In this document: in pieces, positions 7,497 through 28,636 of the stretch | Position numbering within the stretch: position 1 is the first letter of the stretch | Layout: each line of letters starts with the position of its first letter | Assembly (NCBI GenBank): GCA_045647355.1 | Contig: JAZRMF010000005.1 | Location: 165,763 to 229,762 of the forward strand | From: Candidatus Enterousia sp. | GTDB lineage: Bacteria > Pseudomonadota > Alphaproteobacteria > Rs-D84 | Length of the DNA: 64,000 nucleotides | Direction: 5' to 3' | The notes under the pieces: generated by a model | What the model was told of the DNA's origin: nothing | The model's database searches: none | Seen by the model: the letters and a program-made list of their open reading frames with translations, nothing else | Made by a program: the position numbers and the translations under genes

Positions 7497-8609
7497 TTAT
7501 CTACCGTCGTTTTCCATTCTTGTTCTTGCACCCAAACCCAAGACACCAAGCACAGCAAGCCCCCCAATTAATAAAAGGTTGTCATGGCGCTTAGATGTTG
7601 CTTGGTCTAATGCGGCATCGGAATCGCCATTCTGATATGCAACATACGAGCTATCGTTCAATTGCCCGCATGTATACATTTGCTGCGCATCGGCAAAAGT
7701 GATTGTATCTTGGGCCATTATTGTATCAATAACACGCGCACGCCCATTAGATACATCATTCCAAACATCATCCAGCACAATATCTTTAACATCCTTTGTC
7801 TCATATCTTGGTCTTGGTCCACTTGCAATTTCCAAATTTTGTGACAGATTGTCAAAATTCCATATTCCGCAATTATCGGCGTCTTTTTTGATATTATTAA
7901 CATTGTCTGTCCGTTTAGAAGTTTTGCAACACAATATATCAGACAGCGCCAAGTCATAACATCCATTGGCACGCACATCCAATAAATCTGAAAATTCCAT
8001 TTCTCCGCATACTATTGCCGCAAAGAAATAGCAACGTTTTAAAACGCCTGGATCCTTACGATATAGTGTCAGCCATTTGACCAGATCTTTACCTTTGGCG
8101 CCATTATTTAATGCTTTCAAAAATGAAGAGTTTCTAAATTTTGATGGTCCAATACAATATTGAATAACACAGGCCGTCAACAAGGTGTTTTCATCTAACG
8201 AGACTTTTACATCTTCACGAATACTTTTTAAAGTAGAAAATGTAAGGTATCTATCCATATCTATATTCGCACTGGCCATGGTACATGTCTCACCCGGGCG
8301 AACATCGCGCGCCTTGCCATGTTCATCATAAATAACGGTCATACCATAACCTTTGGCTAATCTTCCACAATGATAGGTATGATCATAGAAATTTTCGACA
8401 AAAGCCAACGAAAATTTAATTTTACTGCGCGTTGCTTCAAATAACGCAATATTGCCGTATGGATCATTTTGAACCACTGGGTCTTGCGCAGGCACTTCTG
8501 TCGTTGGCTGTCCTTCATCCTGACTATTATTGTCTTCCTTTGGAGAACACGCGACAAGGCTGCCGAGTAACATAGCGCTGAGTAAAATCTTTTGAGCTTT
8601 ATCTGACAT
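7497..8609 (-). CDS. Putative lipoprotein (370 aa) with lipobox (LVAC) and a C-terminal hydrophobic segment followed by a basic tail
   Basis: N-terminus MSDKAQKILLSAMLLGSLVACS. C-terminus ...LLLIGGLAVLGVLGLGARTRMENDGR. Confidence 0.45.
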   Translation of the reverse strand: MSDKAQKILLSAMLLGSLVACSPKEDNNSQDEGQPTTEVPAQDPVVQNDPYGNIALFEATRSKIKFSLAFVENFYDHTYHCGRLAKGYGMTVIYDEHGKARDVRPGETCTMASANIDMDRYLTFSTLKSIREDVKVSLDENTLLTACVIQYCIGPSKFRNSSFLKALNNGAKGKDLVKWLTLYRKDPGVLKRCYFFAAIVCGEMEFSDLLDVRANGCYDLALSDILCCKTSKRTDNVNNIKKDADNCGIWNFDNLSQNLEIASGPRPRYETKDVKDIVLDDVWNDVSNGRARVIDTIMAQDTITFADAQQMYTCGQLNDSSYVAYQNGDSDAALDQATSKRHDNLLLIGGLAVLGVLGLGARTRMENDGR

Positions 8610-9549: not shown

Positions 9550-10146
9550 TTACCAATTGCGTTTTTTCTTTTCTAAAATACAACCATATAACGCACCAAG
9601 GTATTCAGATTCTGAACACAATTTCTGTGCTGCCAAAGCGGTATTTAATAATCTGTCCGCTTCCGCTTTGGTGCGACCATCGACACGCGTTATTTTACCA
9701 GAATACGGATTTGCGTGCAAGAAATACGCACTGCTTGGCTTTCTCTTGATTGTTTGGAGCATCTGACCTTCGTATGCCACAATGACGGGTTTAGGCGCTG
9801 CGTATTCTATGATAAATGCCGCATCACCACCGTATATATAGTATAAACCGATATCACCGGCACGTTGCTGTTCCAATAATTCTTGGCCTTGTTTCGTACT
9901 CCACCAATAGTTACCAAACGGACTTGTTGTGATTCTTATTTTATCTTCTTGGCCATTATCGTAAATGCATGAGCCAATATCATTGTCTTGGTGTTCCTCG
10001 TTGTACTGCGCACGAAATTCCATCAACCACGGTTGAATAACGGCCACACACGCCTGACATTCTGCCTTGGTGTTTGCATATTTTTGTTCATATGTTAATT
10101 CTGCCATACAAACCCCCTTTGGTTCTTTAACTATAATATAATACAA
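9550..10146 (-). CDS. Hypothetical protein (start possibly at Met14, 10107)
   Basis: Intact ORF with no recognised motifs. Confidence 0.4.
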   Translation of the reverse strand: MYYIIVKEPKGVCMAELTYEQKYANTKAECQACVAVIQPWLMEFRAQYNEEHQDNDIGSCIYDNGQEDKIRITTSPFGNYWWSTKQGQELLEQQRAGDIGLYYIYGGDAAFIIEYAAPKPVIVAYEGQMLQTIKRKPSSAYFLHANPYSGKITRVDGRTKAEADRLLNTALAAQKLCSESEYLGALYGCILEKKKRNW

Positions 10147-10244
10147 AAATACAAAATGTCAAGTAGTCGTAATTTATTTGCATTTTTAACACATTTTATC
10201 TTGATTTTTTCGGATTTGTTCTGTTATAATCACCCCTGCCCTGC

Positions 10245-10286
10245 GGAGCGTTGGCAGAGTGGTAATGCAGCGGATTGCTAATCCGT
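10245..10286 (+). pseudogene. tRNA-Ser(GCU) 5' fragment: 5' half of a disrupted tRNA-Ser(GCU) gene (acceptor stem, D-arm, anticodon stem-loop), broken after GATTGCTAATCCGT
   Basis: GGAGCGTTGGCAGAGTGGTAATGCAGCGGATTGCTAATCCGT joined to 19348..19408 gives a complete 89-nt type II tRNA. A TATAAT -10 box lies ~15 nt upstream. Confidence 0.7.
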
Positions 10287-10617
10287 TTTTCTAGTAAAAA
10301 TTATAGCGTATTTTCAACAAGTTATCATAACCGTCATGGTATCGTGGTGCACTTTTGGTGCAGTTGTCACAATACGCCATATGACCCTATAAAACTCCAC
10401 AACAATTCATCAATATATTTCGGTTTTTGGAACCCAGTGCACCATAACTGCACCAAAAAAATTTTTTACCCTACGAAAACGCTAGTTTTCTGGGGTTTTT
10501 ATATGCTTATGCCACGGATTATGAATCTGTATTCATCAAAAAATGGGGGAGATTTGGTTATTATATATTAGAAAAGGCAAAAAATGACGACATTTGAAAA
10601 AAATTTACACCAAATGT

Positions 10618-10688
10618 CAAAAAATACGGTGAGATTTGTGTATTTATATATGGGATACACAAAAAACACGATGAGATTTGTTTATTAT
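10618..10688 (+). promoter_or_regulatory. Two direct repeats (AAAAAYACGRTGAGATTTGTKTATTWAT) immediately upstream of int; likely arm-type integrase/excisionase binding sites
   Basis: GAGATTTGTGTATTTAT at 10631 and GAGATTTGTTTATTAT at 10673. A third copy at 11853..11868 lies downstream of int. Confidence 0.45.
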
Positions 10689-10706
10689 GTATAAAGAGGT
10701 ATAAAA

Positions 10707-11810
10707 ATGGCAACAATAACAAGGAGAACAAATAAACGCGGCGAGGTTTCTTACAGAGCCCTTATTCGTGTTAAGGGGTATCCTCCGCAATCAAAGACCT
10801 TTATTCAAAGAACTAATGCACAAGAATGGGCAATGCGGACAGAATTACAAATGAAAGACGGCAAATTTGTTATGACATCAGAGGCACAACATAGAACGGT
10901 TGCTGAATTGATAGATAAATTCATCGCCGAGGCCTTGCCAGAATACAAACAAAAAGCACAGGCAAATTATTTGAATACCTGGAAAGGCCTTATCGGCCAA
11001 TACGCATTGATTGCTGTGAAACGGGATTTAATAAATGACGCATTGAACAAAATACGAAAAATGCCAACACCACATGGTGGCGAAAAAACGCCTGCCACCC
11101 TGAACCGTTATATCTCTGCTATGTCTGTCGTATTCACATATGCTTATAAGCAACTGGATTGGATAGAACGCAATCCTTTTGATAAAGTGCAAAAGTATAA
11201 AGAACCCAGGGGACGCGTTCGGTATTTAACTGACGATGAAAGGCACAAATTACTGCATGAGTGTATGTTATCACAAAATTCTTTATTATACCCCGCTGTT
11301 TTGCTTGCTATAACCACAGGTGCCCGCAAAGAGGAAATAATGTCATTGCGGTGGGCGGATATTGACTTGCACGGTGAAACCAAAAGAGCAATTTTACAAA
11401 AAACAAAAAATGGTGAACGGCGGTCTATTTCAATAGTGGAACCTGCATTGACGGAAATGTTGAAATTGGAACAAAAACGCGGAACAAACGAATATGTTTT
11501 TGCCCCACAACGCGAAAGCAAAGTAAAACACCATGCCAACATTACACATGCTTGGTATAACGCATTACGCAGGGCTGGCATAACAAATTTCAGATTCCAC
11601 GACTTACGCCATACTGCGGCCTCGTATTTAGCAATGCATGGGGCAACGAACAGAGAAATGGCCGAATTCTTGGGGCACAAGACCCCACAAATGACCATGC
11701 GTTATGCACATTTGTCTGACCAACACCAATTCTCACTTGCAGAATCCATAATGTCACACCAAGTGTTTGCACAAACACCAAATCAAGGAGGTGAAACAAT
11801 AAAAATTTAA
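10707..11810 (+). CDS. int: Tyrosine-type site-specific recombinase (phage integrase family)
   Basis: C-terminal catalytic region HDLRHTAASYLAMHG...MTMRYAHL (R..H..R..Y). 367 aa. Confidence 0.9.
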   Translation: MATITRRTNKRGEVSYRALIRVKGYPPQSKTFIQRTNAQEWAMRTELQMKDGKFVMTSEAQHRTVAELIDKFIAEALPEYKQKAQANYLNTWKGLIGQYALIAVKRDLINDALNKIRKMPTPHGGEKTPATLNRYISAMSVVFTYAYKQLDWIERNPFDKVQKYKEPRGRVRYLTDDERHKLLHECMLSQNSLLYPAVLLAITTGARKEEIMSLRWADIDLHGETKRAILQKTKNGERRSISIVEPALTEMLKLEQKRGTNEYVFAPQRESKVKHHANITHAWYNALRRAGITNFRFHDLRHTAASYLAMHGATNREMAEFLGHKTPQMTMRYAHLSDQHQFSLAESIMSHQVFAQTPNQGGETIKI

Positions 11811-11927
11811 AAAAATTTCAAAAAAATTGCCAAAACAGGCCAAAAACGACATGAGATTTGTTTATTATATAATGGATAGGCAAAAAGATGACTGCTTGTC
11901 CCGTAAAATTGAATCAAGGAGTTAAAA

Positions 11928-12146
11928 ATGAATGAATTGAAATCGCCAAATCTTATGACAGTCAGTCAGTTTTGCAAAGCAAATCCTGCCTTTTCAATGG
12001 GTAGTATTCGGAACATATTGTTTTATGAGAATGCCAACGGCCTCAAAGCATGTGGTGCCACAAAACGCCTTGGACGCAAAATCTTAATTGATTGCGACAA
12101 ATTCTTTGCGTGGTTGGACACAAATCCATCAATCACAGGCAAATAA
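11928..12146 (+). CDS. AlpA/excisionase-like small HTH DNA-binding protein (72 aa)
   Basis: MTVSQFCKANPAFSMGSIRNILF...CDKFFAWL resembles the AlpA/Xis HTH_17 family. Sits directly downstream of int. Confidence 0.5.
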   Translation: MNELKSPNLMTVSQFCKANPAFSMGSIRNILFYENANGLKACGATKRLGRKILIDCDKFFAWLDTNPSITGK

Positions 12147-12156
12147 GGAGGTCAAA

Positions 12157-13326
12157 ATGTCACAAGAGAAAGAATTTACTCGCCCAATAACAAAACCATG
12201 TGACGCCCCTGTCAATGGGGACGAATTGTTGACCGAATTGGAAAATACATTTAAGCGTTATGTGGTTTTGCCAGACCACGCCTCAACGGCTTTGGCATTA
12301 TGGACGGTGGCAACATATTTACCCTACACCACAGAGGGTAAAGTCAAATATGCACCACGCATAATGATTATTTCGCCCACTCGCGGTTGTGGCAAATCTT
12401 TGTTATTGTCCGTATTGGAATATCTGTGTGAATGTCCGCTTATGACAGGCAATATTTCATACGCCTCGCTTTACAGGATAATAGAGGCCGACAAGCCGCT
12501 TATTCCTTTGATTGATGAATGTGATGGTTATGTTAAGGGTAATACGGATATGGCCAATATTTTAAACAATGGTTTTACGCGTGGTTATCCTGTTATAAGG
12601 TGTCGTGATAGCAAAAATTTGAAACCAAAGCGTTTTGATTGTTTTACACCTGTTGCCGTGGCTGGAATAAACAAATCCACATTTGAACCAACAACCATTG
12701 ACCGTTCTATCATTATCCAAATGCGGAGGAAACGCCCAAATGAAAACATTGAAAAAATACCAAGAATGGATATTTTTGGTGAGTTGCGTCAACAATGTGC
12801 CAGGTTCATAGACGACTTTAAAAATGCGGATATGCCCTTTATTGAAAAAGCCAATGGATTAAACAATCGCAGATTTGATGTCTGGGAAAATTTGTTGAGT
12901 TTGGCAAAATTCGCGTCAGACGATTGGTATGAAAAAGCACTAACAGTGGCTGAACACTTATCAAAAGAAAATGACGATGATGATTCTACGGATTTAGGTA
13001 TTCAATTACTATCAAATATCCGTGAAATTGTGACTGAAAAGTGGATTCCATCAGATGACCTGTGTAAAAAATTAAACGAAAATGAGGAATGGCCTTGGAA
13101 AGAAATGGGTTATCGTGAACAACCATTGACCCCCACAAAATTAGCACGACTGTTAAGACCTTTCAAAATTAAACCACGAAACGGACGGGTGGATATATCA
13201 ACGGTCAAAAAAGGATATTTAAAATCAGATTTTGAATCCGCCTGGGCTAATTACCTTGCAACATTACCAAAAACACCCGCTACACCGCTACAAAGCGTTG
13301 ATTTTGACCCGATATTGAACCCATAA
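12157..13326 (+). CDS. Mobile-element P-loop NTPase of the primase-associated (DUF3631-like) type
   Basis: Walker-A-like ISPTRGCGKSLLLS. Start taken at the ATG after AGGAGG (12157) rather than the ORF-track start 12088. Confidence 0.45.
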   Translation: MSQEKEFTRPITKPCDAPVNGDELLTELENTFKRYVVLPDHASTALALWTVATYLPYTTEGKVKYAPRIMIISPTRGCGKSLLLSVLEYLCECPLMTGNISYASLYRIIEADKPLIPLIDECDGYVKGNTDMANILNNGFTRGYPVIRCRDSKNLKPKRFDCFTPVAVAGINKSTFEPTTIDRSIIIQMRRKRPNENIEKIPRMDIFGELRQQCARFIDDFKNADMPFIEKANGLNNRRFDVWENLLSLAKFASDDWYEKALTVAEHLSKENDDDDSTDLGIQLLSNIREIVTEKWIPSDDLCKKLNENEEWPWKEMGYREQPLTPTKLARLLRPFKIKPRNGRVDISTVKKGYLKSDFESAWANYLATLPKTPATPLQSVDFDPILNP

Positions 13327-13403
13327 AACGCTACACAAAAAACCACGACAATCAAACAGAAATTGATAGTTGTAGCGTTGTAGCGGATAAAAAAGGATAC
13401 GAC

Positions 13404-13796
13404 ATGGCAAATGAACAGAATTTGATTCCAATACGAACCGAGAGCCAAGCAAGAGCACTCGGTCAACGCGGCGGCATTGCAAGCGGTATAGCCCGCCGAG
13501 AACGCAAAAGATTGCGTGAAATTGCTGTGACAATGGTTAATACACCTATGCAAATAGACAATGGCCCTTACAGTATCAACAAATGGTTTGAAAAGTTTAA
13601 TATTTCCGAACCAACAATGATTGATTTCATTATGGCACGCCTGATTGATAGTGCGTGTTCTGGTGATATCCAGGCAACAAAATTATTATTTGCTGTTATT
13701 GGGGATACACCATCGCAAATATCGTTTCCAAACGGCACATTCACACAACAAAAAATAAAGGTATCTTATGAGGCAAAACGACAAAATTTTGAATAA
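13404..13796 (+). CDS. Hypothetical island protein (130 aa)
   Basis: Intact ORF. Confidence 0.35.
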   Translation: MANEQNLIPIRTESQARALGQRGGIASGIARRERKRLREIAVTMVNTPMQIDNGPYSINKWFEKFNISEPTMIDFIMARLIDSACSGDIQATKLLFAVIGDTPSQISFPNGTFTQQKIKVSYEAKRQNFE

Positions 13797-13832
13797 AAAA
13801 AATCCCAGTATTCTGGGAAGTTTTTAGAAAAC

Positions 13833-13922
13833 TGGCGGAGCGTGTAGGATTTGAACCTACGCACGACTATAACGCCGTGACGGATTAGCAATCCGCTCCA
13901 TTAACCACTCTGGCAACGCTCC
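13833..13922 (-). tRNA. tRNA-Ser(GCU): Complete tRNA-Ser(GCU), type II with long variable arm, carried inside the island
   Basis: Reverse complement GGAGCGTTGCCAGAGTGGTTAATGGAGCGGATTGCTAATCCGTCACGGCGTTATAGTCGTGCGTAGGTTCGAATCCTACACGCTCCGCCA. Acceptor 7 bp, anticodon GCT, variable stem CACG/CGTG, T-arm GTAGG/CCTAC, encoded CCA. Confidence 0.85.
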
Positions 13923-14016
13923 ATCGTTCGCCTGCGGATTATAGCAGACAATAAAAGAAAAAATCAAGTTAAAAAGAAAAAACTTTGTTAAAAACAACAA
14001 TATAAGGAGAACAAAC

Positions 14017-14328
14017 ATGACAAACGAACAAGAACAACACATTATTGACGCCATAGATGAGGCAAAAAACGCAATTTATAATAACGGTTCTGACACATAT
14101 GATTACAGAGATTTATTGCAAGGTATTAACAACGAATTACGCGACATAGGACACGGCAATATGGGGTTTGGTTGTCTGGCCGAAATTCATTCTGATTTAC
14201 GAAAACTTAACAAAAACCAAATTGTTGCGGCAATGATTACCGCCACGAAACAAACTTCCCTGGAATCATTGAAAAAGTTTTCGGATTTGGCAGATAAATA
14301 TTTGGATTATGAGGCCAAAAAATCGTAA
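14017..14328 (+). CDS. Hypothetical island protein (103 aa)
   Basis: Intact ORF with an RBS-like AAGGAGA upstream. Confidence 0.4.
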   Translation: MTNEQEQHIIDAIDEAKNAIYNNGSDTYDYRDLLQGINNELRDIGHGNMGFGCLAEIHSDLRKLNKNQIVAAMITATKQTSLESLKKFSDLADKYLDYEAKKS

Positions 14329-14636
14329 TCAAAATATTACAACTTATTTTTTCCGTATCCCTCTTTACTTTTTTCAAATAACCGTATAAAATAAACACTG
14401 AATCCAAGAGATTGGGTTCAGGGCTGTGGTAGCCCATGTTGTTCGGTGCGAAAGCATCGTAATCTGATGTTATCGGTGTTTTCCGCACCGTTATCACCCT
14501 GACTTTATGGTCGGGGAGTCGTTGGCTATAAAATAGGAGCAATCCGAAAGCCACGAAATCAATAACAACATGATTACCAACTCCCTGACCGCTCTCTTTT
14601 GGAGCGGTTCATTTTTACACGCAAAGGGTGAGTTGA

Positions 14637-17600
14637 ATGTCAAAACAGATGATTATTTATTGGTATACAACAAAGAAACAATTCAATGAAATTGAACCTG
14701 GGCAAACTTGGTGTATTGGTGAAGTTGACCCAAATGCCAGTAAGTATTTTGGCATGTCCACCGCCAAAGCGGCCGAAACCCGTGTGCGTGAGGAATTGGG
14801 GAAAGTCAAAGACGGTGCACGCATAACCTTTGATGATATTGATGATTTAGAATACGATTCCTTTGAATTTCCAAATCCAAACAACAAAGAAAAAGGTATG
14901 GATAAAGATATCCATGCAATGTTAAAAACCATTAACTGTAAACAGATTGCCACCGAATGGTTTAACACTACACCCGATGAAATAAAACGCGTTATAAGTC
15001 ATTTGATAAACGGGACACCACTTGGAACAAAATACGAATTACGCAAAAGACAAGGTGACGCAATCAAAGTATTCAAAAAAGCATTGGACAACAAACAAAA
15101 AAAGTTTGGTTTGTTTGCCATGCCACGATTTGGGAAAACAATATGTTCATTTGAAATGATGAATTTGTTGTTTGAAAGATTTCCAGACAAAAAATACATA
15201 TTCTTTATTTCCGCAAAATTGGACGCCGAACAGGCATTACGAGAGGATTATTACAAATTTGACCAAAGTTGTAATTTCAAACTATGTTTATATGATTCTG
15301 ATACCAAAGTCACATTAGAGGATTTACAAAAAGATAAATACCTATTCTTTGCAAGCAAACAATGGTTTGACGGTAAAAGTTTGGACGAAATAAGAAAACG
15401 ATTCCCGTGTGTAAATCACGATGATTGTGCGGCCGTATTTTTTGACGAGGCACATTTTGCCCGTATGACGGATAATGCCCAAGGCACAATACGCTTATTG
15501 AATCCACACATGCAAATTGACATTACGGGCACACCGTTCAGATTAAAAACAAATGAAGATTACGATGACAACAATTCGTATGTTTATAGCGTTTTGGACG
15601 AATATGACGATTACGAAAATTCAGATAACAAAGAGGCATTCCGATTAAAGAATCCTGAAATGGTTTATATCACACCGAAAAATGAATTCTTTAAAACAGA
15701 CAGTTCTTTTGGTGAATTCTTTGACAGTGACGGGTGCCAAGACGCCATCAAAGAATGGGTTGAAAAAACATTTTATGGTGGGAAATTTAACATAGATGGA
15801 AAATCATTGCCAATTACCAACGCCATTGTTGTTTTACCACCACGCCGTAAATATTGTGATTTATTTGCCAGTGCCGTTAATGAATTAGTGCGTGCAAATA
15901 AATACGCAATTAAATGCACCAAAACCACAACCAAAGATAATGATGACAGAGATTACATTCCAGACAACGAACAAAGATTCAAAGAATGGAATCGTATGTG
16001 TAAAAACGAACCGAATTGTTTCCATTTGTTGGTGACGATTGGCAAAGGATTACAGGCCGTTTCATTTCCTGATTGTCACGCGGTTATTATGTTGAATGAT
16101 ATGACATCACCAGAACAATATATCCAGGCAGCGTTCCGTAGTAAAACGCCAAACGGTATCAAAAAAGAGGCATATGTTGTTGATTATAACAAAGGTCGCA
16201 CATTACAGATAATTGATACATTCATCAAAAATCATTTGTTGGTCAAGGCATGTGACGCAAATTATAAAACAGAATACCAGCGTGCTTTGTCGCGTATCCA
16301 AATTCGTGACCACACACTTGTTCGCCAAGAATATACATTTGAGGAAATATTCCAAACATTCATATCAAATTGGAACATTGAAAGAATTACCGATTCCATA
16401 GATTTTGATATAGAACGATTGGTTAACAAGATAGATTTAAGCCAGGTTAAATTATCAGATTTACAAAAACCGCACCAATTAACATTACAGTTAACCGAAC
16501 GCGGTGATGATTATGAACAAACAGACCAAGATGACCAGGGCACTGGCACAGATGATGGTGGTGATGGTGGCAAACATTTGGCACCTGATTGGTTGGAAAA
16601 ACACATTGAAAAATTGAAATCAGACCTGGTTAGGTATGGATATATTCCATTCGGTGGCAAAGAATCAGATAGATTGAAAGATATAAACCCAGACGAAATT
16701 CAACGCCGTGTATTACCTGTTGGCAAAAATGACGATGAACAAGAGGTTTGGTCATATCTTGGTGGTGATGGTGATTGGGACGACATATACATTGATGAAT
16801 CTGGTTTATCACCATCAACCGTTCGTTGGAAATATGTTATAAACAACAGGTTTGTAAATGTCACTGGTGAGGCCTCGCACGGGGACGGTGCTGTTGATAT
16901 CAAAAAAGCAAAAGCATTTATAAACGCAATCATTCGTTATTTACCTGCGTATTTCTTGGTTTCGGGTGTTCCAAATGGTTTTGACGATTTCAAAGACCGT
17001 TTTGGTCGTCAAACAATTTCCGAAAAGCACAAAGAGCGTCAGTTGTTCCGTGAGTTTATGGGAATGGGTATAGATTACCGTTATATCATTGAAATCTTGA
17101 AAGTATGTGACGCAGGTAGTCGCGAACAAATAATCGCATATTGTGCCGATAAAGTTGCCAAATGTTATCAAGACGGCAAATTGGTCCCAGAAAAGGTTTT
17201 GGAATTGCTTTGGGTTTATAAAAAAGACGGCAGTCGCCCCGTGCCAAAGCAACTGGCCGACATAATGCGTAAAGACAAAAACTATGACATTGTGGTTTGT
17301 GGTGGTTATTGGTTAACCGACAACAAAACAAAAATGTATATCACCGACAGTTTTGGTGAATCTGAAATCATGAAAAAATTACGCCCCAACTGCACGGTTA
17401 TTTATTCCAACGATATTTTACAAACACTTGAAAAACAAAAAGAGTCCATCATGAAATTTAAAGCATTCATAATGAATCCACCCTATGGCAATCTGCATTT
17501 GCCGATATTGAAAGAGATGATAGAAATGATTGTTGAAAATGGTGGACACGGTGTCAGTTTACAACCAGTTCGTTGGTTGCAAGACCCATTGGTTAAATAT

Positions 17601-18287
17601 AAAAAATCCACCGATTTTAGCAGGTATAACGAGGTGTTAAAAAATAGTTTAGCAGACATACAAATATATTCCTCAACAGAAGTTGGCAGAATGTTTGAGG
17701 CAGTATTTACAATGGATTTAGGTATTTATGAATTTAGCAAAGGCAGCACCTACAACTTGGACAAATTGTATAAAGACCATTTGTTAGAAAAAATCGTAGA
17801 TACGATATTGTCCACAGATAAACAACATACCACAATTCACGCCAAAATGGAAAAAGATAAACGAATGGGGATAAGGGTAAGAGTTTGTGATATACAAGAC
17901 AACGGCAGAGGTGGAAATGGTGGACGAAAAAGCCACATAGGTTTATACAGGACACAAAGAATAGAGAATGGACTAGTTGACGGGAAAGATTGGACAGATT
18001 GTGTTCAAAAGAATCAATGTAGTAGACAAAGCGGTGCCCCAATCCCGTATAGTATAGAATTTGATTCTATCAATGAGGCAGATAATTTTATCAAATCAAC
18101 AAAGACCATATTTTGGCAGTATTTAATGTTAAAAATGCATAGGGATATAAATGTTCCAAATCAATGGTTGCCGTTTATGAATGATTATTCTGAACCATGG
18201 ACAGATGAACGATTCTATGCATATTTTGATATAACACCAGATGAACAAAAGATTATTGAGGAAACAGTCAAAGACGCGAAAAAGTAA
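14637..18287 (+). CDS. Large fusion protein (1216 aa): N-terminal ~115-aa domain of unknown function, SF2 DEAH-box helicase (Res-like), and the catalytic (motif IV NPPY) half of an N6-adenine DNA methyltransferase
   Basis: Motif I FAMPRFGKT, motif II FFDEAHFA, motif III ITGTPFR, motif VI QAAFRSKT, and methyltransferase motif IV KFKAFIMNPPYGN near residue 955. A Q-motif-like ELRKRQGDAI precedes motif I. Confidence 0.75.
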   Translation: MSKQMIIYWYTTKKQFNEIEPGQTWCIGEVDPNASKYFGMSTAKAAETRVREELGKVKDGARITFDDIDDLEYDSFEFPNPNNKEKGMDKDIHAMLKTINCKQIATEWFNTTPDEIKRVISHLINGTPLGTKYELRKRQGDAIKVFKKALDNKQKKFGLFAMPRFGKTICSFEMMNLLFERFPDKKYIFFISAKLDAEQALREDYYKFDQSCNFKLCLYDSDTKVTLEDLQKDKYLFFASKQWFDGKSLDEIRKRFPCVNHDDCAAVFFDEAHFARMTDNAQGTIRLLNPHMQIDITGTPFRLKTNEDYDDNNSYVYSVLDEYDDYENSDNKEAFRLKNPEMVYITPKNEFFKTDSSFGEFFDSDGCQDAIKEWVEKTFYGGKFNIDGKSLPITNAIVVLPPRRKYCDLFASAVNELVRANKYAIKCTKTTTKDNDDRDYIPDNEQRFKEWNRMCKNEPNCFHLLVTIGKGLQAVSFPDCHAVIMLNDMTSPEQYIQAAFRSKTPNGIKKEAYVVDYNKGRTLQIIDTFIKNHLLVKACDANYKTEYQRALSRIQIRDHTLVRQEYTFEEIFQTFISNWNIERITDSIDFDIERLVNKIDLSQVKLSDLQKPHQLTLQLTERGDDYEQTDQDDQGTGTDDGGDGGKHLAPDWLEKHIEKLKSDLVRYGYIPFGGKESDRLKDINPDEIQRRVLPVGKNDDEQEVWSYLGGDGDWDDIYIDESGLSPSTVRWKYVINNRFVNVTGEASHGDGAVDIKKAKAFINAIIRYLPAYFLVSGVPNGFDDFKDRFGRQTISEKHKERQLFREFMGMGIDYRYIIEILKVCDAGSREQIIAYCADKVAKCYQDGKLVPEKVLELLWVYKKDGSRPVPKQLADIMRKDKNYDIVVCGGYWLTDNKTKMYITDSFGESEIMKKLRPNCTVIYSNDILQTLEKQKESIMKFKAFIMNPPYGNLHLPILKEMIEMIVENGGHGVSLQPVRWLQDPLVKYKKSTDFSRYNEVLKNSLADIQIYSSTEVGRMFEAVFTMDLGIYEFSKGSTYNLDKLYKDHLLEKIVDTILSTDKQHTTIHAKMEKDKRMGIRVRVCDIQDNGRGGNGGRKSHIGLYRTQRIENGLVDGKDWTDCVQKNQCSRQSGAPIPYSIEFDSINEADNFIKSTKTIFWQYLMLKMHRDINVPNQWLPFMNDYSEPWTDERFYAYFDITPDEQKIIEETVKDAKK

Positions 18288-18877
18288 TGACAAGACAGAA
18301 AACAGATTATGATTGCAATAACAATGCTTGCGATTTAAACCTGACAAAACAGGAATGTAAATCGGCTGGTGCTTTTCATACGCCAGAAAAATTGGCTATT
18401 GAGATGGCAAAAAAATTGTTTCCAAAATATATTACAACATGTCGTAAATGTAGAACCAAGGCGGGTATAATTAAAAAATTTGGACAAGAGGGAATTGATT
18501 TTCTAAAAGATTTCAGGTTAATTGACCCATGTTGTGGCACTGGTAATTTGTTGGCCGCCGCAATGAATGTCTATAAATGGATTGACGAGGAGGACCTTTA
18601 CGGTGTTGATATAGACCCGCGGGCTATTGATTTTTGTATGCGTAAATTTCCACATGGACATTTCCAGGTTGGTGATTGCCTGTTAGAGGATTTAACCGAT
18701 GATAAATTTTGGGAACACCCATCTGATGGTTTGTTTGGTGCCTATAAAGCACAAAAACTGGCCGAGGCCACACGCATAATCAAAGATAAAGCCGTCAAAA
18801 ACAGAAAAGAATTATCTGCGGATTTGTTAAAACAAAAACAAATGCAAATGACACAGAATCCACGGGGTGCTAAATAA
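18287..18877 (+). CDS. AdoMet-binding half of an amino-methyltransferase (motifs X, I, II, III) as a separate 196-aa ORF overlapping the upstream stop (TAATG, -1 frame)
   Basis: GAFHTPEKLAIEMAKKL (motif X) and LIDPCCGTGNLL (motif I, DPxCGxG). No NPPY in this ORF. Confidence 0.7.
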   Translation: MTRQKTDYDCNNNACDLNLTKQECKSAGAFHTPEKLAIEMAKKLFPKYITTCRKCRTKAGIIKKFGQEGIDFLKDFRLIDPCCGTGNLLAAAMNVYKWIDEEDLYGVDIDPRAIDFCMRKFPHGHFQVGDCLLEDLTDDKFWEHPSDGLFGAYKAQKLAEATRIIKDKAVKNRKELSADLLKQKQMQMTQNPRGAK

Positions 18878-19347
18878 TGGGTGTATTGATTGTTATTCTT
18901 TGCGTATGGATTGGAATAAAGTTGATTGTTCCCCTGGGATACTTGTTGCTTTGTTGGTTGCTTGGTTTAAATGATAATAATCCAGACGATACCCAGGGGG
19001 AATAAAGTGTATATTCTTATGGGATTTTACTATTTGGTCATCATATGTCTTATCATTGGCATATTCAAAGCATTATTTGGTCGGTAAAATGGTGCACTGA
19101 ATTTTGTGCATAGTCGTTTTCGTTATATTCGTCAGTTTCAATTTTCGCCAGGAATCCAAGACCTCTACCTATATTCATCGGACACGGTTCCCCCCCTCTC
19201 GTGGTGCAATTATGGTGCAGTTCATACCAAAAAACACCACATTTGGCAACAATTCACAAAAATAGCGATTTTTACCAAACCCGCAGAAATCTCTTGCTTT
19301 TTGTTGTAATCTGTTGTAGAATATTATTGAAAAAACAGGGGGTAATA

Positions 19348-19408
19348 GATTGCTAATCCGTGACCGTGTTATAGCGGTCCATAGGTTCGAGTCCTATACG
19401 CTCCGCCA
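19348..19408 (+). pseudogene. tRNA-Ser(GCU) 3' fragment: 3' half of the disrupted tRNA-Ser(GCU) (anticodon loop, variable arm, T-arm, acceptor, CCA)
   Basis: GATTGCTAATCCGTGACCGTGTTATAGCGGTCCATAGGTTCGAGTCCTATACGCTCCGCCA. The acceptor 3' strand ACGCTCC pairs with the 5' fragment at 10245. Confidence 0.7.
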
Positions 19409-20673: not shown

Positions 20674-22410
20674 CTATTTATCTTTTGGTGATGCGCTATC
20701 GATTTTGCGGGTCATTTTCAGGAACTTTTCTGCACGCAATTCCGGTAATTTTTCCGGGTCGGTCTTTTGCAATAATTTGATTTGTTCACTGACCGCGTTA
20801 GCCAAACTTTCCATCGTCGTTTGCCAATCGGTATGTGCACCACCCGCAGGTTCCGGAATTATTTTATCAATCACACGCATTTCCATCATATCGGTGGCCG
20901 TCAATTTCATCGCCGCCGCCGCAGTAGCCTTGAATTTATTATCTTTCCACAAAATACTTGCGCAAGATTCCGGCGCAATAACCGAATATATCGCATTTTC
21001 CAACATTAACACACGGTCGCCTGTTCCGATTGCGATTGCACCACCGGAACCACCCTCGCCAACATTAACAGCGATGTACGGTGTCTTGATAGAAAGCCCT
21101 GTTTGGATTGACGATGCCACAGCTTCGGATTGACCACGTTCTTCGGCGGCCGAACCCGCAAATGCACCCGCCGTATCAAACAATGATATAACCGGCAAAT
21201 TAAATCTTTCCGCCAAACGCATCAACCTTTGCGCCTTGCGATAGCCTTCGGGATTTGGCATGCCAAAGCGGTGCAGTTGACGTGTTTCAATCGTGCGACC
21301 CTTTTCTTGACCCAAAATCACCGCAGGGAACCCGTTCCAAAAACCAATACCGCCACACATTGCCGCGTCTTCACCAAACAATCTGTCGCCGGCAAGGTAT
21401 GTCCAATCCGATACAATACCATTGATATAATCCAAGAAATGCGGGCGATTTTCATTTCGCGCCAATAAAACTTTGTCATACGCAGCATTTTCACCCATGC
21501 CACGTGCCTTTTTGGAAGAATCTGAATCCGCCGGAGTTTGGGTTGTTATCTTTTCCACGGTACGTGATTGGTGCGTTAAAACAGCCAATATTTTTTCCAG
21601 ACGTGATTTCAGCTCGACACGTGGAACAACCATATCCACCATACCATGTTCATACAAATAATCCGCCGTTTGGAAATTTGCGGGTAATTTTTCGCGAATA
21701 TTTTGTTCAATAACGCGACGCCCCGCGAAACCAATACGCGCACCAGATTCTGCAATATTAATATCACCCAACATTGCAAAAGATGCCGTCACCCCGCCAT
21801 ACGTTGGATCGGTTAATAACACAATATACGGAATCTTGGCCGCATGCAATTTATTTACGGCGACGGTTGTACGCGCCATCTGCATCAGGGATAATATATT
21901 TTCTTGCATACGGGCGCCACCACTGCACGCCACCATAATCAAGGGTTGATGCATCTGAATTGCGTGTTCGGCACTGGCCACGATACCCTCACCGGCAACA
22001 CGTCCCATTGACCCCATCATAAATTCGCCGTTCAAAATACATATCGTTGTTGGGATACCACCAATGCGACCGTCCGCCGTTGTAACCGCGTCATTGTATC
22101 CGGTATCACTGCGCCCTTCGGCCAAACGTTCTGAATATGGGATTCTATCTACAAAATTCAGTGGATCATCCGGTAACGTTGGTAATTGAATTTTTTCCCA
22201 CGTGCGGTCATCGAACAGCAAATCAAATCTTTGCTTTGGATTCATAATAAATGCCCGGCCACAACGCGGACAGATATAATGATTATCCTTGTAATCTTTG
22301 TAATACACCAATTTATCGCAAGATTCGCATTTTATCCACATCAACCGACGAACGCGGTCGTATTTTTCACGATTCTTGTTTTTAATTCCGGATTTTTTAC
22401 CGAATAACAT
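20674..22410 (-). CDS. accDA: Acetyl-CoA carboxylase carboxyltransferase: fused beta (AccD, N-terminal zinc finger) and alpha (AccA) subunits in one 578-aa polypeptide
   Basis: N-terminal CESCDKLVY...CPRCGRAF zinc ribbon with an AccD core. The C-terminal half has AccA motifs FGMPNPEGYRKAQRLM, AEERGQSEAVA and GEGGSGGAIAIG. Confidence 0.85.
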   Translation of the reverse strand: MLFGKKSGIKNKNREKYDRVRRLMWIKCESCDKLVYYKDYKDNHYICPRCGRAFIMNPKQRFDLLFDDRTWEKIQLPTLPDDPLNFVDRIPYSERLAEGRSDTGYNDAVTTADGRIGGIPTTICILNGEFMMGSMGRVAGEGIVASAEHAIQMHQPLIMVACSGGARMQENILSLMQMARTTVAVNKLHAAKIPYIVLLTDPTYGGVTASFAMLGDINIAESGARIGFAGRRVIEQNIREKLPANFQTADYLYEHGMVDMVVPRVELKSRLEKILAVLTHQSRTVEKITTQTPADSDSSKKARGMGENAAYDKVLLARNENRPHFLDYINGIVSDWTYLAGDRLFGEDAAMCGGIGFWNGFPAVILGQEKGRTIETRQLHRFGMPNPEGYRKAQRLMRLAERFNLPVISLFDTAGAFAGSAAEERGQSEAVASSIQTGLSIKTPYIAVNVGEGGSGGAIAIGTGDRVLMLENAIYSVIAPESCASILWKDNKFKATAAAAMKLTATDMMEMRVIDKIIPEPAGGAHTDWQTTMESLANAVSEQIKLLQKTDPEKLPELRAEKFLKMTRKIDSASPKDK

Positions 22411-26992: not shown

Positions 26993-28222
26993 TCAGAACG
27001 ACAACGAACCAAATGCATTTAACAATATGTCAAAATAGTTTTTGTCAGATTTTTGTGCCTTCAGCAAGCTTTTGTAGTGTGATAGCGCGGCATCCAACAG
27101 CTTATACTCTGATGGCGCGCATTCTGTTCTTTGCCTGTGATATTCATCATACAACCGTTTCACATCTGGTCTTTGATTAATTTTATGTGTTATATCCGCC
27201 AGCTGCTTTGCCGATAAATATTCATAGTTTGGATATTCTTCACGAATATATTTTAACTTTAAATCTTGATAAGCTTTTTCAGCCCGCCCCAAAGATTCAA
27301 AATATTTTTTATATTTTATACGCAACCCAGCAAGTTTCGTTTCTGCGTAATCTATTAAAATTTTTAATGCCTTGGTATAAAGTTCCGGTTTTTTTATTGC
27401 CTGCTCTATTAATATTTTTTCTAACTTGTCCATAACAATACAGCCAATACGGTAAGAACTGACCTCTGTTGGGTTGGACTCGTGGTCTATTAGTGAATAT
27501 ATCGGTTCTGAATACGCGGAAATTTGAGCCCCCAAACTTCCTAAATCAGGGTATTTTTTATCAATAAAGTGTCCGTATTCATGACTAATTGTACACATAA
27601 AGCCCAGAAAACCCATAAAATCATTATTTCTGAACATGGTTATTGTTGATTCACTATCATAGTATGCATTGCACTCGGTGGATTCGTATCCATAACCACT
27701 AATAATACTGCGTATCTTCATATAAAAATCAGCCAGCAAATCGATAATAGGTTGCTGATTTTTTTTATCCAGGTAACGAATCTTCAATTTATCATTGATT
27801 CCAAAATAATTATTTATCTCGTTCACAATCTTTAACGCAAGTTCTTGCCGCTGTTTTCGGTTCAAAGACTTAAATGTCCATGCAGCCAATAAAATATCAT
27901 CATCAGAACAAATAATTTGAGCATAGATATCCGCGTATTTTTGCGCGACCGTATCCATTGTATTTTTAGACATAGATTCTTTTAATTTAATCCGAAAATC
28001 ATCATCGGACAGGCCACCTGGTTTACGACGCCCTTTGTATATTTTGGCCAATTCCGGATTAAAAGTTGAAAATTCACCGACGATAGAATCCAACAACCCT
28101 GGGTCACGTTCCACCATTTCGGTAAATTCTTGTAAAGTTATATTGTTCGGCGCATACCTTTCATATATATCTTTAATCTTGCGTTTATTTATCATAATGA
28201 ATTTCCCTGCTATTAGTATCAT
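26993..28222 (-). CDS. Hypothetical protein with HExxH motif (TISHEYGHF); possible zincin-like metalloprotease/effector. Start probably at 28195 (MINKRK).
   Basis: Intact 400-aa ORF. The HEYGH motif is in a hydrophobic context. Confidence 0.45.
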   Translation of the reverse strand: MILIAGKFIMINKRKIKDIYERYAPNNITLQEFTEMVERDPGLLDSIVGEFSTFNPELAKIYKGRRKPGGLSDDDFRIKLKESMSKNTMDTVAQKYADIYAQIICSDDDILLAAWTFKSLNRKQRQELALKIVNEINNYFGINDKLKIRYLDKKNQQPIIDLLADFYMKIRSIISGYGYESTECNAYYDSESTITMFRNNDFMGFLGFMCTISHEYGHFIDKKYPDLGSLGAQISAYSEPIYSLIDHESNPTEVSSYRIGCIVMDKLEKILIEQAIKKPELYTKALKILIDYAETKLAGLRIKYKKYFESLGRAEKAYQDLKLKYIREEYPNYEYLSAKQLADITHKINQRPDVKRLYDEYHRQRTECAPSEYKLLDAALSHYKSLLKAQKSDKNYFDILLNAFGSLSF

Positions 28223-28558: not shown

Positions 28559-28636
28559 GGCGGATGTAGCTCAGCTGGTTAGAGCGTCGGTTTGTGGTAC
28601 CGAATGTCGCCGGTTCGAATCCGGTCATCCGCCCCA
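28559..28636 (+). tRNA. tRNA-His(GUG): tRNA-His(GUG) with G-1 and encoded CCA
   Basis: G-GCGGATG acceptor, anticodon loop TTGTGGT, T-arm GCCGG TTCGAAT CCGGT, 3' CATCCGC-C-CCA. Confidence 0.85.

Follow-up and report, generated by a model that had tools for sequence, protein, structure and literature searches.

How a bacterium can tolerate an insertion that cuts a tRNA gene in two, when neither end of the inserted element rebuilds that gene, is the question raised by a 9,075-bp island in the genome of Candidatus Enterousia sp., an uncultured alphaproteobacterium. The island lies within a 64-kb stretch of contig JAZRMF010000005.1 (hereafter the window, to which all window-wide counts and scans refer), where it separates the 5′ and 3′ parts of a host tRNA-Ser(GCU) gene and carries a complete tRNA-Ser(GCU) gene of its own. 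The best explanation of the locus is tRNA-dependent integration by this island, to which we assign a probability of roughly 0.8. The insertion point, the exact boundaries of the island, the empty site, the mobility of the element, the conservation of its layout and the structural conservation of its tRNA are all directly visible in the DNA analyzed, whereas the functional part of the explanation is worded conditionally below.

The 5′ part of the host gene (10245-10286) has the sequence GGAGCGTTGGCAGAGTGGTAATGCAGCGGATTGCTAATCCGT, after which unrelated AT-rich DNA begins, while the 3′ part (19348-19408) consists of GATTGCTAATCCGT and then GACCGTGTTATAGCGGTCCATAGGTTCGAGTCCTATACGCTCCGCCA. The 14-bp core GATTGCTAATCCGT forms direct repeats at both ends of the island, and the identity between the two junctions ends exactly at the edges of this 14-mer; one core copy together with 10287-19347 gives the island length stated above. 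Three occurrences of the core were found in the window, two at the junctions on the plus strand (10273-10286 and 19348-19361) and one on the minus strand within the island tRNA (13880-13893). When 10245-10286 was joined to 19362-19408, the resulting 89 nt were recognized by ARAGORN as a tRNA-Ser(gct) with a long variable arm. The coordinates of the halves, the 14-bp core and the perfect 89-nt type II tRNA-Ser(GCU) described in the initial annotation, which was made from the sequence alone, therefore hold to the base.

That annotation had also claimed that neither junction regenerates a tRNA and had predicted that ARAGORN would call one intact tRNA-Ser(GCU) on the minus strand and not the split copy, and both statements were confirmed. 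Four tRNAs were called in the whole window, the sole tRNA-Ser(gct) among them being the island copy at 13833-13922, and no tRNA was called at 10245, at 19348 or in either of the 200-bp junction segments. At the gathering threshold of Rfam, only the island tRNA was matched in the island region. With a permissive threshold, a truncated tRNA covering model positions 10-42 of 71 was found at the left junction (attL) with 23 bits versus a gathering score of 29, and no convincing match was obtained at the right junction (attR). The left junction is thus tRNA up to about position 43 and unrelated sequence thereafter, and the island does not restore its target tRNA.

Independent metagenome contigs of the same species with the unoccupied site were retrieved by exact-sequence look-up of two flanking host proteins, and comparison with them places the island exactly inside the anticodon arm. 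In L003, L001 and L006 the genes for a 185-aa and a 188-aa protein are adjacent, with a contiguous tRNA-Ser(gct) between them whose 89 nt equal the joined halves, and L007 reads across the core into the host 3′ half and represents the empty allele. The initial annotation had stated beforehand that the lack of a contiguous tRNA at the empty site in related genomes would speak against the split; all four contigs carry the uninterrupted tRNA with the same flanking genes. Occupied junctions were found in independent assemblies, attL in L253-L256 and attR in L257, and three further contigs (L004, L005 and L008) break at the core, which is the expected assembler outcome for a polymorphic insertion. 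In the related species L266-L268 no tRNA-Ser(GCU) is located beside the AccD/AccA fusion gene described below, and no further empty or occupied sites were therefore obtained there.

In L253 and L254 an island 99.8% identical to that of the window is located in a second host background. Island-positive samples include ERZ28653446 and ERZ27256983. The host DNA upstream of the tRNA differs in these contigs, comprising a 77-aa gene and a TfoX-like gene, and is only 76% similar where it can be aligned; the spacer of the tRNA promoter also differs from that in the window (L253 1-1257 and L254 1-50 versus window 10195-10244). Since the island occupies the same position in two host backgrounds, it is mobile and has entered both recently, which indicates a recent horizontal transfer between host lineages.

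The complete tRNA-Ser(GCU) that had been noticed on the minus strand of the island was confirmed by ARAGORN, and alignment with the rebuilt host tRNA bore out that the acceptor and anticodon arms are common to both, whereas the D-arm, the variable arm (CACGGCGTTATAGTCGTG in the island tRNA) and the T-arm differ. The promoter-like hexamers and their spacing are the same for the island and the host tRNA. For a structure alignment, four island tRNA-Ser and three rebuilt host tRNA-Ser sequences were used. Standard pairing was found in 98.3% of the cells, with 12 of the 26 pairs changed on both sides; pairing together with double-sided changes reached this level in none of 500 shuffles, and slid controls dropped to 30-45% paired. 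The cloverleaf is preserved by compensatory changes across island and host tRNAs. All seven sequences share G1-C72, G2-C71, A3-U70, C11-G24, the long variable arm and the G discriminator, which are recognized identity features for the seryl-tRNA synthetase of Escherichia coli. Each island tRNA is closer to the tRNA of its own host lineage than to the island tRNAs of other lineages (L264 pair versus window pair), which suggests that island tRNAs may have been repeatedly re-captured or subjected to gene conversion. AGY codons are in use in the host genes, accounting for example for 7 of the 30 serine codons of the AccD/AccA fusion, and to our knowledge they are read by no other serine tRNA.

According to the proposed mechanism, a tyrosine integrase would recombine the attachment site of the island (attP), composed of the 14-bp core and GGTGCA arm-type repeats, with the anticodon stem-loop of the host tRNA-Ser(GCU) gene, which would serve as attB; the crossover probably falls within the 7-nt loop. 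After integration, the host promoter and the 5′ part would be left at attL and the 3′ part at attR, so that the host gene would be reversibly inactivated, and the decoding of AGY serine codons would be taken over by the island tRNA-Ser(GCU) with its own promoter-like and terminator-like signals. Precise excision would rejoin the host gene. Host range could plausibly be an advantage of this design: with a short core that falls in the best-conserved portion of the tRNA, hosts with differing variable and T arms would be admitted without the need for a working chimeric tRNA. The earlier claim that the complete cognate tRNA compensates for the split host copy is supported by the empty sites, by the independent junction contigs and by the recurrence of the arrangement in diverged relatives. 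It had further been supposed that this tRNA makes the island hard to lose, and this has to be abandoned: precise excision restores an intact host gene, as seen at the empty sites, and the island tRNA would therefore be needed to survive integration and not to block loss. Only imprecise deletions of the island would be lethal.

The integrase is a member of a large family, and relatives were collected in two ways. Distant relatives (30-48% identity) were obtained by searching collections of genome, metagenome and viral contigs with an alignment of the integrase, which yielded none closer than 48% and no copy of this island; closer relatives (48-60% identity) came only from exact-protein look-ups. 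Among the distant relatives, at least 53 of the 93 loci whose upstream sequence is long enough carry an intact tRNA on the same strand 100-700 bp upstream of the integrase gene (int). These upstream tRNAs represent 16 tRNA species, including tRNA-Ser(GCU) in L032 and L043, and several of the loci have a second copy of the anticodon loop downstream, i.e. a classical attR. Classical tRNA restoration with a crossover in the anticodon loop is the norm of this family.

All closer relatives examined, by contrast with this norm, proceed from the 5′ part of a tRNA-Ser(GCU) through the core into non-tRNA sequence and then to int (integrases P0006 in L089, P0004 in L090/L091, P0010 in L092, P0009 in L262/L263, P0014 in L260/L261 and P0019 in L264/L265). 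In both L089 and L092 an island tRNA-Ser(gct) is present in inverted orientation, and L089 also contains attR with its 3′ half. In L264 an island tRNA-Ser(gct) in direct orientation is located beside the P arm of the attachment site, followed by attR with the 3′ half and by the host TyrRS gene. The same layout was found with tRNA-Thr(CGT): in L129/L010 a valid tRNA-Thr results when the halves of a split gene are rejoined, and the island tRNA-Thr(cgt), located 370 bp from attR, is inverted; L055 has a tRNA-Thr(CGT) 5′ half and an inverted island tRNA-Thr(cgt), but no attR was found in it, the candidate at 8447 rebuilding no tRNA.

In a rough neighbour-joining tree, calculated without bootstrap, all seven Ser(GCU) split elements group together with L129 as their neighbour, L055 falls within a group of classical integrases targeting Thr(CGT), and L032 and L043, which are classical Ser(GCU) integrases, are located far away. 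Two or more origins are therefore suggested by the placement of L055 apart from the Ser(GCU) group, and tRNA-dependent integration may thus have arisen at least twice in this integrase family. A more tentative proposal, for which we would offer slightly less than even odds, is that this mode of integration is no peculiarity of phages but the ancestral lifestyle, stably passed on, of a whole clade of small islands other than phages in uncultured Alphaproteobacteria. The groupings in the tree and the likeness of island tRNAs to the tRNA of their own host lineage speak for it.

The alternative that survives best regards the island tRNA as ordinary cargo, supplying codons or counteracting anticodon nucleases, with the host living on another copy of tRNA-Ser(GCU). 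Some room for it is left by the fact that the host genome beyond 64 kb is not visible and by the proposal that phage tRNAs may counter tRNA-degrading defences (PMC10865867). Ordinary cargo would, however, hardly be expected to match the disrupted tRNA down to the anticodon in all six elements in which both can be seen; moreover, a 12-mer scan revealed no cognate internal tRNA in the classical relatives, and the fold of the island tRNA is kept by the compensatory changes reported above. We consider this alternative unlikely.

The initial annotation had raised another possibility, a classical integration with a tRNA rebuilt at attL and a secondary inversion between the anticodon-loop cores. Although the identical core in inverted orientation inside the internal tRNA makes this geometrically conceivable, the tRNA halves do not add up: the locus contains two 5′ and two 3′ halves, a classical integrant would contain one 5′ and two 3′ halves, and an inversion conserves these counts. 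The empty site shows that only one tRNA comes from the host, the layout recurs with integrases that are 48-60% identical and includes the direct orientation in L264, and island tRNAs differ from the host halves in their 5′ and 3′ parts alike. On the half counts, the single host tRNA and the conserved layout the inversion was rejected as very improbable. Even less credible is a functional split tRNA whose halves would be ligated or would pair in trans, as happens in some archaea. Nothing speaks for it beyond the existence of two halves: in the consensus scan no promoter-like site precedes the 3′ half on the plus strand, reading of the junctions revealed neither a leader nor a trailer with complementarity, we know of no bacterial machinery for trans-joined split tRNAs, and the complete and conserved island tRNA makes such joining unnecessary. 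A chimeric contig arising as an assembly artefact, for which the apparently metagenomic source and the contigs broken at the core might be cited, is practically out of the question, since attL is covered by four or more independent assemblies and attR by one, all agreeing in their junction sequences, and since both occupied and empty alleles were recovered.

Several points weigh against tRNA-dependent integration. Expression and charging of the island tRNA, like the requirement for it, are predictions from sequence. The host presumably has no second tRNA-Ser(GCU), but with 64 kb in view a second chromosomal copy is possible. Promoters and terminators were called solely by their match to a consensus, and the consensus scan returned 41 promoter-like sites versus 34.6 expected from shuffles. 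In three of the close relatives (L090/L091, L260/L261 and L262/L263) the contig ends before any island tRNA. Finally, no excised attP circle, whose junction is predicted to read ...GGGGGTAATA-GATTGCTAATCCGT-TTTTCTAGTAAAA..., was found in any of the genome, metagenome and viral contig collections scanned with the integrase alignment.

The copy of the core inside the island tRNA was compared between elements. It is identical to the att core in the window and in L129, and one base off in L089 (tRNA at 16896-16984), L092 (14206-14294) and L264 (13847-13934). A protective mismatch in the island tRNA, which would apply to the latter three elements, is not found in the window or in L129 and was dropped as a general feature. 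The idea that the inverted orientation of the island tRNA is selected against self-deletion between direct cores is contradicted by L264, in which this tRNA has direct orientation and is located 170 bp from the core. Conceivably, the identical inverted copy may act as an integrase substrate and give rise to inversion and chimeric tRNAs; the predicted inverted isomer would consist of the host 5′ half and the core, followed by CACGGCGTTATAG.

The features of the locus are compiled in Table 1. The motif GGTGCA-N5-GGTGCA occurs three times in the window (10346, 10438 and 19203), in each case within an att arm, and three occurrences were reached in none of 100 shuffles. In L090, L092, L260 and L264 the cores are likewise bordered by GGTGCA pairs of a similar kind. 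Predicted arm-type integrase-binding repeats are thus present on both sides of the core, in agreement with a lambda-type attP. The start of int lies 421 bp past the attL core, and the catalytic residues R207, K234, H298-x-x-R301, H324 and Y333 are conserved in the alignment of the integrase family. At attL a terminator-like score was obtained for the anticodon stem-loop and the T-run directly following it (10269-10287). This T-run is kept in L089, L090, L092 and L262 and not in L260, L264 and L129, and it might halt transcripts from the strong host tRNA promoter before they reach int. The presence of a decayed 3′ half inside attL was considered because the host variable arm shares the 8-mer TTATAGCG located just within attL; this 8-mer is missing from L089, L090, L092 and L262, and the idea was discarded.

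Table 1. Features of the island and of the split host tRNA-Ser(GCU) gene in the window.
Feature	Coordinates	Strand	Evidence and remarks
Host tRNA-Ser(GCU) promoter-like site: TTGATT, 18-nt spacer, TATAAT, TG before second hexamer	10201-10230	+	Consensus scan, 10/12 matches; 15 bp upstream of tRNA position 1; predicted
Host tRNA-Ser(GCU) 5′ part: acceptor 5′ strand, D-arm, anticodon arm	10245-10286	+	Matches empty-site contig L003 exactly over the first 42 nt of its intact tRNA; Rfam partial match
attL core copy, 14 bp, GATTGCTAATCCGT	10273-10286	+	
P′ arm, island DNA adjoining the core	10287-10460		GGTGCA-N5-GGTGCA at 10346-10362 (+) and 10438-10454 (-); T-run directly after anticodon stem
Tyrosine integrase (int), 367 aa	10707-11810	+	Pfam PF00589, E = 1.7e-27; phrog_1 integrase, E = 1.4e-64
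72-aa protein	11928-12146	+	Sub-threshold DUF6462 match only; gene for 72-76 aa at same position after int in L089, L090, L262, L264
DUF3631 protein, 389 aa as called on L253	12157-13326	+	Pfam PF12307, E = 3.1e-32; also in L089, L262; DUF3987 protein instead in L092
130-aa protein, phage-associated family of unknown function	13404-13796	+	phrog_2412, E = 6.9e-15; 131-aa gene at same position in L089
Terminator-like hairpin and T-run just downstream of island tRNA	13803-13818	-	TCCCAGAATACTGGGA then TTTTTTTT
Complete island tRNA-Ser(GCU), 90 nt, encoded CCA, G discriminator	13833-13922	-	ARAGORN; Rfam tRNA, 59 bits versus gathering score 29
Island tRNA promoter-like site: TTGATT, 18-nt spacer, TATAAT, TG	13938-13967	-	Consensus scan, 10/12 matches; predicted
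103-aa cargo protein	14017-14328	+	Gene also called on L253, L254
1216-aa cargo protein with ResIII/SNF2-type helicase domain, NPPY near C-terminus	14637-18287	+	Pfam ResIII, E = 2.5e-13; phrog_16 helicase; NPPY read from translation
196-aa N6-adenine methyltransferase-like open reading frame (ORF), motif I only	18287-18877	+	Pfam N6_Mtase, E = 8.9e-05; weak PADLOC matches to type II, type IIG and PglX methyltransferases
P arm	19090-19347		Third GGTGCA pair at 19203-19219 (+)
attR core copy (19348-19361), then host tRNA-Ser(GCU) 3′ part: variable arm, T-arm, acceptor 3′ strand, CCA	19348-19408	+	Same sequence as the corresponding 3′ part of the uninterrupted tRNA of L003, L001, L006

Of the genes that follow int, the first is a possible candidate for an excision cofactor, a weak assignment made from its position only. 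The DUF3631 protein, from a domain family with no function assigned, is a putative replication or mobilization protein. The cargo following this shared module varies among the relatives and comprises helicase/methylase, KAP NTPase or peptidase genes. In the island analyzed here, the 103-aa protein gave no family match in Pfam, PHROGs, PADLOC or NCBIfam. PADLOC gave no match for the 1216-aa protein, which can therefore not be named as a known defence system. The stop of its gene overlaps the start of the 196-aa ORF, and this ORF, which is possibly truncated, keeps only the S-adenosylmethionine-binding motif. The region 14637-18877 may represent either a disrupted gene or an uncharacterized module of restriction-like or anti-restriction type. 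Searches of the 9.1-kb island against Pfam, PHROGs and NCBIfam detected none of the capsid, tail, terminase, lysis or repressor families; the island therefore works like the phage system of tRNA-dependent lysogeny discussed below but is not a phage.

Other arrangements were observed elsewhere in the integrase family. Orphan 3′ halves of tRNA-Met or tRNA-Asn are located about 100-400 bp upstream of int in L011, L017, L037, L045, L071, L079 and L116, an arrangement suggestive of classical islands stacked in tandem on a single tRNA; L045, with an intact tRNA-Met another 7.4 kb upstream of the orphan 3′ half, is such a tandem classical array. L101 has a 5′ fragment (positions 1-65) of a tRNA-SeC detected by ARAGORN just upstream of the integrase (9770-9893), and an intact, near-identical copy follows 4.5 kb downstream on the same strand (14349-14442), which may be a mirror-image arrangement with the element supplying the 5′ part.

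In the host neighbourhood, the beta and alpha carboxyltransferase subunits of acetyl-CoA carboxylase are encoded as a single 578-aa AccD/AccA fusion (20674-22410, minus strand). This fusion is found with 78-95% identity in many contigs of related alphaproteobacterial metagenome-assembled genomes, often near the tRNA-Ser(GCU) site, and related contigs carry GcrA and TrcR. A 409-aa ORF of low GC content (about 34%) is located between recG and tRNA-His (28560-28636) at 26993-28222 on the minus strand. It is absent from the otherwise collinear L003, in which recG is almost directly followed by tRNA-His. This ORF is a second strain-variable insertion beside a tRNA gene, and no integrase was seen there.

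The closest known counterpart of the locus is the tRNA-dependent lysogeny of actinobacteriophages such as Fionnbharth, LeBron, Gaia and others (Guerrero-Bustamante and Hatfull, mBio 2024, PMC10865867). In these phages a tyrosine integrase uses a core of 8-17 bp, no tRNA is rebuilt, and the cognate phage tRNA is required for viable lysogens, as was tested genetically; classical and tRNA-dependent members are intermixed within the integrase families (PMC10865867). The island resembles this system in its tyrosine integrase with arm-type sites, in an attB within a host tRNA, in its short core (14 bp), in the lack of a rebuilt tRNA at attL and attR, and in an element tRNA with the same anticodon. 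It also resembles it in that relatives within the integrase family rebuild their target classically and in that the tRNA-dependent state appears to have arisen more than once. It differs in that the carrier is a 9-kb island without recognizable phage structural, lysis or repressor genes, that the host is an uncultured alphaproteobacterium and not an actinobacterium, that the requirement for the tRNA is here a presumption, and that the targets, tRNA-Ser(GCU) and in relatives tRNA-Thr(CGT), are both absent from the table in PMC10865867. That paper uses neither "satellite" nor "genomic island" as a term. The element agrees with tRNA-dependent lysogeny in every sequence-level criterion, but it is not a phage. 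The att architecture, described as unusual in the initial annotation, is indeed unusual; it is not an undescribed one, as it fits tRNA-dependent lysogeny (PMC10865867).

Prophage Lj965 of Lactobacillus johnsonii was an earlier hint of the same principle according to PMC10865867, and a survey from 2024 reported tRNA genes of Sinorhizobium meliloti that were inactivated and replaced by phage-related sequences (PMC11476347). In both cases, which are computational observations, the integrated element, as here, leaves the tRNA unrepaired and brings a cognate copy with it, and S. meliloti also belongs to the Alphaproteobacteria. Those elements are prophages or remnants, whereas a compact island is found here, and the likeness noted is one of layout.

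In classical tRNA islands as defined for Islander, the island sequence restores the target gene and the displaced fragment is found at the other end (PMC4383910). The present island shares with such islands, including those of the anticodon-loop sublocation of Williams 2002, the integrase family and the order of tRNA 5′ end, core and int on the same strand; the tyrosine integrase gene adjoins the tRNA end, and direct repeats flank the island. The tRNA restoration that defines those islands (PMC4383910) is lacking here. The order of int, a small ORF, a gene for a DUF3631 or DUF3987 protein and then variable cargo resembles that of P4-like and phage-inducible chromosomal island (PICI)-like satellites, small elements that combine an integrase, a small DNA-binding protein and a primase-related module. 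The island is at most a possible member of this group, as no helper phage, capsid-redirecting genes, helper-interaction gene or packaging site were recognized. As in archaeal split or disrupted tRNA genes, e.g. in Caldiarchaeum (PMC3293823), an integrating element leaves a tRNA fragment at the anticodon region. The archaeal case involves intron-containing or split functional tRNAs (PMC3293823), unlike the split gene here, which would be reversibly inactivated and replaced.

The principle of this integration mode is already known; new are the non-phage carrier, the host group, the target tRNAs and the apparent conservation across a clade. How widespread tRNA-dependent lysogeny is outside actinobacteriophages was asked by the mycobacteriophage work of 2024 (PMC10865867), and the locus and its relatives point to the same solution in Alphaproteobacteria, apparently conserved through deep integrase divergence as judged from the rough tree. 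Tools for island mapping that need an intact or restored tRNA and a displaced 3′ fragment probably miss such elements. A tRNA gene in a small island may be essential for integration instead of being codon-usage cargo, and a short-core integrase together with a cognate tRNA would form a portable integration module, as the Hatfull laboratory proposed for vectors. If tRNA-dependent integration is indeed the inherited lifestyle of this clade, the decay of an island in place would permanently substitute a foreign copy, differing in position and strand, for the serine tRNA gene of the host, and such a substitution would provide a route to tRNA gene turnover.

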